Below are positions 13,267 to 13,614 of a stretch of 45,162 bases of DNA, in pieces. The notes beneath the pieces were generated by a model, which worked only from the letters and a program-made list of their open reading frames with translations, did not search any database and was not told where the DNA came from. Origin of the DNA: a virus (Duplodnaviria; Heunggongvirae; Uroviricota; Caudoviricetes); the IMG/VR virus record IMGVR_UViG_2684623059_000002; one strand, 5' to 3'. The translations under genes were made by a program, and so were the position numbers. The first letter of the stretch is position 1; every line of letters begins with the position of its first letter.

Positions 13267-13295
13267 TTGCAACATTGATTTTGCAACGTTATTAT
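13267..13295 (+). promoter_or_regulatory. Sigma70-type promoter (late pR'-like) driving the tRNA cluster: -35 TTGCAA, 17-bp spacer, -10 TATTAT
   Basis: Near-consensus hexamers with 17-bp spacing, 9 nt upstream of the first tRNA. Confidence 0.6.
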
Positions 13296-13304
13296 CCTGC
13301 GCCC

Positions 13305-13380
13305 GGCCCTTTAGCTCAGTGGTGAGAGCGAGCGACTCATAATCGCCAGGTCGCTGGTTCAAATCCAGCAAGGGCCACCA
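13305..13380 (+). tRNA. ileZ: tRNA-Ile2 (anticodon CAU, ileX/ileZ-like; could alternatively read as Met)
   Basis: 76-nt cloverleaf, 7-bp acceptor stem GGCCCTT/AAGGGCC, anticodon loop CTCATAA, encoded CCA; very similar to E. coli ileX. Confidence 0.85.
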
Positions 13381-13381
13381 G

Positions 13382-13458
13382 CCGCCACTAGCTCATCAGG
13401 AAAGAGCGTCAAGCCTTTAAGTTGAGTGTGCGAGGTTCGAGTCCCCGGTGGCGGTCCA
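13382..13458 (+). tRNA. Atypical tRNA-like gene (C1-G72 acceptor, anticodon loop CCTTTAA; UUU-like with C33; possible pseudo-tRNA)
   Basis: 77 nt with acceptor CCGCCAC/GTGGCGG, D-arm GCTC/GAGC, T-loop TTCGAGT, encoded CCA; mismatches in anticodon and T stems. Confidence 0.45.
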
Positions 13459-13460
13459 GT

Positions 13461-13536
13461 GCCGACTTAGCTCAGTAGGTAGAGCAACTGACTTGTAATC
13501 AGTAGGTCACCAGTTCGATTCCGGTAGTCGGCACCA
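13461..13536 (+). tRNA. tRNA-Thr (anticodon UGU)
   Basis: 76-nt cloverleaf, acceptor GCCGACT/AGTCGGC, anticodon stem ACTGA/TCAGT, loop CTTGTAA, encoded CCA. Confidence 0.8.
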
Positions 13537-13539
13537 TAT

Positions 13540-13614
13540 GCGGGCATCGTATAATGGCTATTACCTCAGCCTTCCAAGCTGATGATGCGGGTTCGATTCC
13601 CGCTGCCCGCTCCA
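13540..13614 (+). tRNA. tRNA-Gly (anticodon UCC, glyT-like)
   Basis: 75 nt, acceptor GCGGGCA/TGCCCGC, anticodon loop CTTCCAA, T-loop TTCGATT, encoded CCA; matches recalled E. coli glyT. Confidence 0.85.

Follow-up and report, generated by a model that had tools for sequence, protein, structure and literature searches.

A four-gene tRNA cassette of a lambdoid prophage and its atypical second member

What does a lambdoid prophage do with four transfer RNA (tRNA) genes placed behind its late antiterminator gene Q, and is the second of them, with its abnormal anticodon loop, a working tRNA? The question is raised by IMG/VR virus record IMGVR_UViG_2684623059_000002, a stretch of 45,162 nucleotides (nt), the whole of which is here called the window. 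It represents a lambdoid prophage, Qin-like in its early region and carrying type III secretion system effectors as cargo at its right end. Overall, we are modestly inclined to read the locus as a late-leader tRNA cassette, in which three supply tRNAs are joined by an anticodon-switched and possibly nuclease-insensitive tRNA, designated Lys*.

Gene content of the cassette and codon supply

ARAGORN called four tRNAs and no more in the window, in head-to-tail order on the + strand: tRNA1 (13305-13380, anticodon CAT; Rfam RF00005, 72.5 bits, E = 4e-14), tRNA2 or Lys* (13382-13458, anticodon TTT at position 35; 38.9 bits, E = 8e-05), tRNA3 (13461-13536, anticodon TGT; RF00005, 73.8 bits, E = 2e-14) and tRNA4 (13540-13614, anticodon TCC; RF00005, 64.9 bits, E = 6e-12). 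With E values computed for the whole window and a gathering score of 29 bits for RF00005, the scores of all four are far beyond chance. The genes are separated by spacers of 1, 2 and 3 nt, the CCA is encoded in each of them, and their anticodons correspond to the A-ending codons AUA, AAA, ACA and GGA. The four-gene cluster with these anticodons, as given in the initial annotation of the sequence, was borne out by both programs, and so was its statement that the composition is unlike the ileZ-argN-argO set of Shiga toxin (Stx) phages, because gene 2 carries UUU and genes 3 and 4 are copies of host thrU and glyT. Judged by these homologies, the cassette reads as a variant of the known, already annotated ileZ-argN-argO kind.

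The cassette is common rather than rare. Matches covering at least 80% of the full four-tRNA query were found in 502 of the 5,426 complete E. coli genomes, in which the cluster is annotated Ile/Lys/Thr/Gly by PGAP, and tRNA2 was found intact, with the CCA encoded, in 782. The exact tRNA2 allele of the window is present in 0 of the 5,426 genomes, the best match being one base off. In the literature on ileZ/argN/argO and on prophage tRNA-Lys we found nothing on the present cassette.

For three of the four genes the identity is straightforward. tRNA1 agrees with MG1655 ileX at 68 of 76 positions, has the same CUCAUAA loop, and keeps the pairs C4-G69 and C5-G68, which we take to be the TilS determinants of Ile2 tRNA; it is identical to ileZ of the aligned Stx2a and PPompW loci, and its homologues are labelled tRNA-Ile by PGAP. 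From this agreement tRNA1 can be assigned as an ileX-like Ile2 tRNA (CAU), the phage ileZ, predicted to be a TilS substrate that reads AUA. tRNA3 is identical to MG1655 thrU, tRNA-Thr(UGU), at all 76 positions, and tRNA4 to MG1655 glyT, tRNA-Gly(UCC), at all 75. The junction between the two (13536-13540, CCA-TAT-GCGGG) corresponds to the first base after host thrU and the last two before host glyT; these 3 nt give a faint suggestion that the Thr-Gly pair was captured from the host thrU-tyrU-glyT operon, with subsequent deletion of tyrU. As a separate observation, A.C is found at two places where the host or sister gene has G.U, namely A27.C43 in tRNA1 (G27.U43 in ileX) and A51.C63 in tRNA2 (G51.U63 in argN of VT2-Sakai), each with a transition at both partners.

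The codon usage of the window was examined for a supply role of these tRNAs. The three effector genes, encoding an NleG-family effector (40650-41240), a SopA/NleL-like effector with pentapeptide repeats (41290-43662) and an NleC-type Peptidase_M85 effector (43916-44908), have a GC content of 38% and an extreme usage of AUA and ACA: per thousand codons they contain 32.7 AUA (51% of Ile codons), 17.5 ACA (49% of Thr), 16.0 GGA (30% of Gly) and 34.2 AAA. In the structural genes AUA is not enriched, and the frequencies are 11.5 for ACA, 13.5 for GGA and 30.7 for AAA. The E. coli averages per thousand are about 4-5 for AUA, 7 for ACA, 8 for GGA and 34 for AAA, and the host has two genes ileX/Y, one thrU and one glyT, as compared with six for tRNA-Lys. 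A supply role thus appears reasonable for the Ile2, Thr and Gly tRNAs and a poor fit for the Lys tRNA, because AUA, ACA and GGA are enriched, while AAA shows no excess in any gene set counted in the window and is already served by six host genes.

Structure, variation and relatives of Lys*

As seen from the sequence and the Rfam alignment, tRNA2 has the acceptor pair C1-G72, the anticodon loop CCUUUAA with C at position 33, U73, and the mismatches G31.G39 and A51.C63. It folds as a cloverleaf with four helices by the Rfam score given above, with two non-pairs marked, and it is accepted by ARAGORN. The positions U8, A14, G18-G19, A21, U54-U55-C56, A58, G53-C61 and the 3' CCA are kept, the exceptions to the tertiary set being U15/G48 (usually R15/Y48) and the mismatch A51.C63. 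The loop is that of host tRNA-Lys except for position 33, and as such it departs from the canonical elongator loop: the order C32-C33-U-U-U-A-A was found in all 117 copies collected from IMG/VR, and in the window copy the pair 31-39 is open in addition. ARAGORN and PGAP both name the gene tRNA-Lys(UUU), and ARAGORN and Rfam place U34-U35-U36 as the anticodon, as expected for a substrate of lysyl-tRNA synthetase (LysRS); the discriminator, U73, differs from the A73 of a LysRS substrate and is inherited from argN.

The origin of this mixture is clear from alignment. tRNA2 aligns over its full length with Stx-phage argN (UCG), sharing with it C1-G72, U73, the D arm and the T arm, and the mismatch A51.C63 is common to tRNA2 and the F349-type argN. 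The changes from argN to tRNA2 fall mostly in the anticodon arm (G30:C40 to A30:U40, U33 to C33, C35 to U, G36 to U, and G43 to A), so that tRNA2 can be described as an argN homologue with an anticodon arm rebuilt from UCG to UUU, including a compensatory change at 30-40.

An IMG/VR pattern scan, followed by ARAGORN, yielded 120 loci, in which three cassette architectures sit on one backbone: ileZ-Lys*-Thr-Gly (94 loci with exactly these four genes, plus truncated and extended forms), ileZ-Lys*-argO (13 loci) and ileZ-argN-argO (7 loci). The 117 Lys* copies fall into 12 variants, among which positions 33-38 never vary. Six of the 8 stem substitutions among the variants are C-to-U changes opposite G with pairing kept, and the two that break a pair are rare, occurring as singletons or doubletons. 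When tRNA2 and its relatives were folded by minimum free energy (MFE), the optima were not cloverleaves, the z-scores were weak (-0.4 to -2.0), and the cloverleaf lay 3-6 kcal/mol above the MFE even for argN. Because such folding was uninformative even for argN, comparative pair counts were used: the share of paired cells is 94.9% for the Lys*/argN alignment (3 compensatory pairs) and 98.6% for the wider family carrying the same scaffold (6 compensatory pairs), for which slid controls give 32-53%. These counts argue for structural selection on tRNA2. In the wider-family alignment the window sequence alone is unpaired at 31-39.

The initial annotation had suggested, from C33, C1-G72 and the stem mismatches, that tRNA2 may be non-canonical or degenerate, and it named a standard identity with a canonical loop as the result that would speak against this. 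The predictors do give a standard identity, Lys-UUU, yet the loop is non-canonical, and this part of the suggestion stands; degeneracy agrees less well with a family cloverleaf kept by compensatory changes. Both mismatches are present, but G31.G39 is confined to the window and one IMG/VR locus, the common allele being C31-G39. The particular allele of the window, in which C31G opens the loop-closing 31-39 pair, may be a weakened one, and for this allele a degenerate status is possible.

The exact scaffold pattern was found only in E. coli and Shigella flexneri in a scan of one genome per species. Scans anchored on the scaffold detected related tRNAs in other temperate phages, several of them beside CAU and Gly(UCC) tRNAs: at L132 251-328 (Yersinia phage YeP3, MK733261, 36569-36646), L146 7420-7492, L138 13237-13310, L158 1486-1559 (- strand), L144 1351-1424 and L153 4579-4652. 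In phage YeP3 the scaffold tRNA lies about 190 nt past Q and is annotated, on the basis of tRNAscan, as tRNA-Pseudo-TTG. The relatives have the acceptor stem CCGCCAC/GTGGCGG in common, and their anticodon stem is ATAAC/GTTGT, with ATGAC for the UAU members; they differ in the loop, with C-A33-UUU-AA, C-A33-UAU-AA, C-A33-UUG-NN, C-A33-UUA-UU and C-C33-ACA-AG. Within the A33 lineages, A73 is found in most UUU members and G73 in all UUG members; E. coli LysRS prefers A73, and GlnRS prefers G73. The member at L144, with anticodon UUA and G73, looks like a natural ochre-suppressor form.

The family alignment thus points to a scaffold next to Q with a constant acceptor stem (the one just given), T arm GGTTCGAG and an encoded CCA. 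A non-U33 loop with a switched anticodon recurs on this scaffold with the cloverleaf kept, which raises the odds, as compared with before, that C33 is a trait rather than decay. One could go further and suppose an adaptive design, in which temperate phages keep one scaffold with switched anticodons (UCG, UUU, UUG, UAU, UUA and others) and, outside the argN form, a non-U33 position (C33 in the E. coli Lys*, A33 in the Yersinia type), as working or decoy tRNAs that would evade nucleases dependent on U33, t6A37 (N6-threonylcarbamoyladenosine at position 37) or the host anticodon-stem sequence. We consider this extended proposal rather unlikely as a whole; were it true, temperate phages of Enterobacterales would hold a modular kit of 'resistant tRNAs'.

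An 82-nt paralogue, absent from the window, was noticed in the course of these scans. At L013 1469-1550, L024 3739-3820 and L122 1425-1506 (all on the - strand) it is placed on the downstream side of the Gly gene, some 650 nt away, and it also occurs in the E. coli-type loci L137, L140, L143, L145, L149-L152, L156 and L157, there with no ARAGORN cassette within 700 nt. Its stem is ATAAC/GTTGT, its loop reads A-C33-GUA(or AUA)-U-U, and its variable loop has 9 nt. The identity given by ARAGORN is Val(aac) or Tyr(ata); the Val(aac) call was not adopted, since there is no Rfam tRNA match and the stem ATAAC/GTTGT implies the loop ACGUAUU.

Nuclease determinants of Lys* and the competing explanations

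If AAA supply does not account for Lys*, its anticodon arm may be considered in relation to the tRNA-cutting nucleases with published determinants. AriB cleaves at U36AAUC|A41, and cleavage is abolished by U39A and impaired by U16C (PMC12409363); with PARIS, a swap of the 31-39 pair made E. coli tRNA-Lys resistant (PMC11464382). AriB has two prime targets, Lys(UUU) and Thr(UGU) (PMC12409363), and T5 depends for its escape on Lys and Thr (and Asn) tRNAs of its own (PMC12409363, PMC11464382). In lambda-infected cells P2 Old is lethal through cleavage of thrU, after C, at paired CNG motifs of the anticodon stem; phage tRNA-Thr variants, including that of the lambdoid phage 21, give rescue, and over-expressed host thrU protects little or not at all (PMC12445682). 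PrrC cuts tRNA-Lys 3' of U33 (PMC2610378), t6A37 being a positive determinant according to Bacusmo 2018 as cited in PMC12409363, and E. coli TsaBCDE was unable to modify a U33C tRNA in vitro (PMC8887486).

At the positions recognized by AriB, Lys* has C31-G39 (G.G in the window) and not A31-U39, U40-U41 and not C40|A41, and C16 and not U16, and it reads U36AAGUU41. For P2 Old, it carries C28-A-A30 and U40-U-G42, that is, CAA and UUG in place of the two CNG motifs, both of which are retained by argN and were removed by the compensatory 30-40 change. The C33 probably prevents formation on Lys* of t6A37, a modification that E. coli tRNA-Lys(UUU) bears together with mnm5s2U34. Because the published determinants of AriB, P2 Old and PrrC are missing or altered, Lys* is predicted to be a poor substrate for all three. 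It combines, as would be expected of a nuclease-resistant phage tRNA, the anticodon of the target with alterations at published recognition and cleavage positions. In tRNA3 the opposite was found: at 76/76 identity it equals the sensitive host thrU, including UAAUCA and both CNG motifs. On these motifs we tentatively put forward, as its likeliest role, Lys* as a nuclease-insensitive spare tRNA-Lys(UUU), or possibly a decoy, a proposal to which we would give less than even weight. No report of Lys* escaping cleavage or rescuing growth or infection was found in the literature searched. As an aside on tRNA3, IMG/VR contains a few rare prophage thrU variants, each in 1-3 copies, with U16C, U20C or both, or with changes at 42-43 by which the 3' anticodon stem and the CNG motif are disrupted; such changes are of kinds reported to blunt AriB or P2 Old.

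Several observations weigh against this proposal and against the overall reading. U73 argues against an efficient lysine tRNA and so against ready charging with lysine, the mismatch A51.C63 points in the same direction, and C33 with the probable loss of t6A37 should lower decoding efficiency. The Rfam score of tRNA2 is about half that of its neighbours, the window allele breaks the 31-39 pair, and G39 and C16 were inherited from argN and hence are not specific adaptations. Nucleotide diversity, calculated from 27 loci with homologous flanks (the estimate from all 88 loci is distorted by non-homologous flanks), is 0.002 for tRNA1, 0.006 for tRNA3, 0.013 for tRNA4 and 0.023 for tRNA2, the last being ten-fold that of tRNA1 and no lower than the 0.019 of flanking non-coding DNA. 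There are Lys* lineages with a 1-nt deletion in the D stem (15 copies) or with U8C (18 copies), the anticodon arm is deleted in the copy of an Stx2c phage (L131 251-316, Stx2c_JNE082642), and tRNA2 was left unannotated in two phage records. The pattern of the wider family is also compatible with tRNA-like decoys or pseudogenes. For the remaining genes, the supply argument is no more than a correlation, and expression of the effectors in lysogens is governed by other controls. The Stx2c-phage copy, which lies between ileZ and argO, shows further damage besides the loss of the arm and is decayed.

The strongest competitor draws on much of the same evidence. It holds that tRNA2 is a decaying relic of argN without function, carried along inside a useful operon, with UUU and C33 the products of neutral drift. 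A diversity equal to that of the flanks, the low Rfam score with two mismatches in the window copy, and the damaged lineages with a D-stem deletion, U8C or a lost anticodon arm are what such a relic should display, the annotation of the YeP3 scaffold tRNA as a pseudogene agrees with it, and a non-U33 loop with U73 is hard to square with an efficient lysine tRNA. A drifting relic, however, leaves unexplained the compensatory double substitution between argN and Lys* and a cloverleaf that is 95-99% paired across the family, in which pair-breaking changes are singletons or doubletons and the frequent changes keep pairing; nor does it agree with tRNA2 being intact, with CCA, in 782 E. coli genomes, or with an independent lineage that also joins UUU to a non-U33 residue (A33). 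We regard the relic as possible, though doubtful.

In a second alternative the defence role is extended to the whole cassette, which would replace the tRNAs cut, during growth of a lambdoid phage, by PARIS (Lys-UUU, Thr-UGU), P2 Old (Thr-UGU) and HepS-type nucleases (Thr, Ile). T5 needed both Lys(UUU) and Thr(UGU) against PARIS (PMC12409363), thrU is the lethal P2 Old target in P2-lambda interference and the tRNA-Thr(UGU) of phage 21 is protective (PMC12445682), and Thr and Ile tRNAs are cut by HepS (PMC13043305). The difficulty lies with tRNA3, which is a copy of the nuclease-sensitive host gene, with UAAUCA and both CNG motifs, and extra host thrU barely protects against Old (PMC12445682); moreover, glyT is no reported main target, and changes of the protective type are found in rare IMG/VR copies only. 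This extension is improbable.

A still weaker case can be made for tRNA2 as a non-decoding, tRNA-like RNA that serves as a decoy for anticodon nucleases or modification enzymes, or as a processing signal of the late transcript. In the family the acceptor and T arms are near-invariant, and the loop is hypervariable and often abnormal (A33 or C33, pyrimidine 37, loops of 6 or 8 nt), and competitive inhibition by viral tRNAs was raised as a possibility by the authors of the AriB study (PMC12409363). Set against this, A73 in most UUU members and G73 in all UUG members of the A33 lineages hint at real charging, as far as the identity rules for LysRS and GlnRS apply, and an ordinary tRNA would account just as well for the encoded CCA and the canonical T loop. 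We hold it to be quite improbable. A shift of the decoding register, by which tRNA2 would act as ochre suppressor (UUA) or frameshifter with the U-turn moved to U34, is hardly credible: UUA does stand one position downstream in CCUUUAA, G31.G39 could open a 9-nt loop, and the related L144 has a true UUA anticodon, but ARAGORN and Rfam both put UUU at 34-36 and the common allele has a closed 7-nt loop. Shifted loop readings (UUA ochre, CUU) were rejected, as no alternative stem pairs and C32 would oppose U40.

Late-leader position and comparison with known systems

The slot of the cassette was then defined by its surroundings. A putative promoter, TTGCAA (13267-13272) and TATTAT (13290-13295) with a spacer of 17 nt, was located by the promoter scan on the + strand at 13267-13295, just before tRNA1. 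Both hexamers are invariant in the 27 loci with homologous flanks, in which 4 spacer positions vary, and they are also invariant in a four-sequence alignment that includes an Stx2a phage and a PPompW prophage. The record of VT2-Sakai (AP000422.1) annotates a 'putative tRNA promoter' at the corresponding place, ending 9 nt before tRNA-Ile, a match made by annotation and not by alignment, and possible terminators on both sides of the tRNA cassette. A dedicated sigma-70-type tRNA promoter is supported because the hexamers are conserved and because of this earlier annotation. The initial annotation had described it as near-consensus and strong; the position, hexamers and spacer stand, together with their conservation, but agreement with the sigma-70 consensus at 9 of 12 positions makes that description generous, and the promoter scan gave 4 sites of such quality in 1.1 kb as compared with 1.3 +/- 1.0 in shuffles. 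The 5' end of tRNA1 lies 9 nt past the -10 hexamer, and therefore the predicted leader is just a few nt long. The GC-rich stretch between the two, CCTGCGCCC (13296-13304, + strand), recalls what we assume to be the GC-rich discriminators of stringently controlled stable-RNA promoters.

Upstream, the late antiterminator Q of 231 amino acids is encoded at 12399-13094 (+ strand; Pfam Phage_antiter_Q, E = 5.9e-92), and the gene order DUF968-RusA-Q-tRNAs matches that of related annotated prophages. The promoter scan found a pR'-like promoter, TTGCAA-17-TATATT, at 13078-13106 (+ strand), overlapping the end of Q, and about 50 nt past it lies a tR'-like intrinsic terminator at 13155-13184 (+ strand; inverted repeat I2), with a CCCGC/GCGGG stem, a 6-nt loop and a run of 7 T; the promoter scan marks this hairpin solely on the - strand. 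This layout, pR' and then tR' after Q, would give a short transcript, some 70 nt in length, that stops at the hairpin. Inside the unit 13107-13184, the segment 13111-13183 gave a sub-threshold Rfam match to isrK, a small RNA (sRNA) of the Gifsy Q region (22.9 bits against a threshold of 50).

Directly 3' of tRNA4, two perfect inverted repeats were found on the + strand, 13621-13631/13656-13666 (I3; arms of 11 nt, 24 nt apart) and 13674-13689/13731-13746 (I1; arms of 16 nt, 41 nt apart). Identity to the window over 13615-13760 reaches 95% or more in 69 of 88 loci, and the region that phage phi467 has in common with the query runs only from 13456 to the query end at 13700. These limits indicate that the repeats at 13621-13746 travel with the Thr-Gly module; they gave no Rfam match and no clear terminator tail. 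The first late open reading frame, for a NanS-p-like esterase, follows at 13938-15854 (+ strand; Pfam DUF1737, SASA and DUF6645), at the same position as in related prophages, and after it come the lysozyme gene, the terminase, and the head and tail genes. The closest E. coli matches cover about two-thirds of the first 22 kb at about 93% identity, and in the most similar prophage the slot after Q holds Ile-Arg-Arg. The Qin/Rac-like early region further carries a sok antitoxin RNA (9744-9917, + strand, 99.9 bits) and the DicF sRNA (3055-3106, - strand, 76.4 bits). The pairing of a prophage nuclease with its own immune tRNA was also considered and set aside as unsupported: among ten non-structural proteins of the window PADLOC detected neither a tRNA nuclease nor any other defence system, its sole hits being weak AAA-ATPase matches for the DnaC-like protein.

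Taken together, the locus is read as the tRNA cassette found in many lambdoid prophages of E. coli within the late-operon leader, which separates the first late gene from Q and its pR'-tR' module. The cassette would be expressed from its own promoter in the lysogen and boosted after induction by the Q-antiterminated late transcript that spans it; the primary transcript would be a tightly packed tetramer, to be processed by host RNases into four tRNAs. By this scheme tRNA1, tRNA3 and tRNA4 may add gene copies of low-copy host tRNAs for codons enriched in phage genes, above all in the AT-rich effector cargo, and Lys* may provide a spare tRNA-Lys(UUU), or a decoy, that is not seen by defence nucleases directed against tRNA-Lys. 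Phage tRNAs have recently been recast as counters to tRNA-cutting immunity (PARIS, retron Eco7, P2 Old), with evidence almost all from large virulent phages, and the present cassette resides in common E. coli prophages, including carriers of type III effectors and close relatives of Stx phages. If the reading is true, it would bring counter-defence tRNAs into temperate phages, provide a natural decoding tRNA without U33, and explain the high variability of the tRNA slot after Q; if it is not, the cassette would be an ordinary rare-codon tRNA supply with one relic, useful for annotation.

Among known systems, the host thrU-tyrU-glyT-thrT operon of E. coli K-12 shares with the cassette identical thrU and glyT genes in the same order, but the cassette is without tyrU, the spacers, thrT and tufB, has a gap of 3 nt in place of 209, and is preceded by a different promoter. 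The C33 initiator tRNAs of multicellular eukaryotes (PMC8887486) resemble Lys* as a natural U33 exception beside an A37 that otherwise bears t6A; they differ in being eukaryotic initiators, for which KEOPS tolerates C33, whereas in E. coli C33 blocks TsaBCDE in vitro (PMC8887486). The T5 tRNA-Lys(UUU), a PARIS neutralizer (PMC11464382, PMC12409363), is likewise a phage tRNA with the anticodon of the main AriB target, and both it and Lys* differ from the host tRNA-Lys in the 31-39 pair and at positions 41 and 16 (C16 for U16), the T5 tRNA being quoted as U36AAACC41 against U36AAGUU41 for Lys*. In contrast to it, Lys* belongs to a temperate lambdoid prophage, its scaffold is that of an arginine tRNA, it has C33 and U73, and its resistance is a prediction from sequence. 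The tRNA-Thr(UGU) of phage 21 (PMC12445682) is comparable to tRNA3 as a lambdoid-phage tRNA with the UGU anticodon; it and other protective tRNA-Thr have altered CNG motifs or a shorter anticodon stem, whereas tRNA3 is the sensitive host thrU.

The closest likeness is with the Stx phages 933W, VT2-Sakai and Stx2a_F349, in which ileZ-argN-argO occupies the same slot between Q and the first late or cargo gene. In both cassettes ileZ stands first and is identical, the promoter hexamers are shared in the aligned Stx2a and PPompW loci, and the second gene has the same scaffold of acceptor stem, D arm, T arm and U73. The two differ in that gene 2 of the Stx phages has UCG with U33, as against UUU with C33 and the compensatory 30-40 change here, and in that argO (UCU) of the Stx phages is replaced here by copies of host thrU and glyT. 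The PPompW prophages, with ileZ-Lys*-argO, represent the intermediate form between the two.

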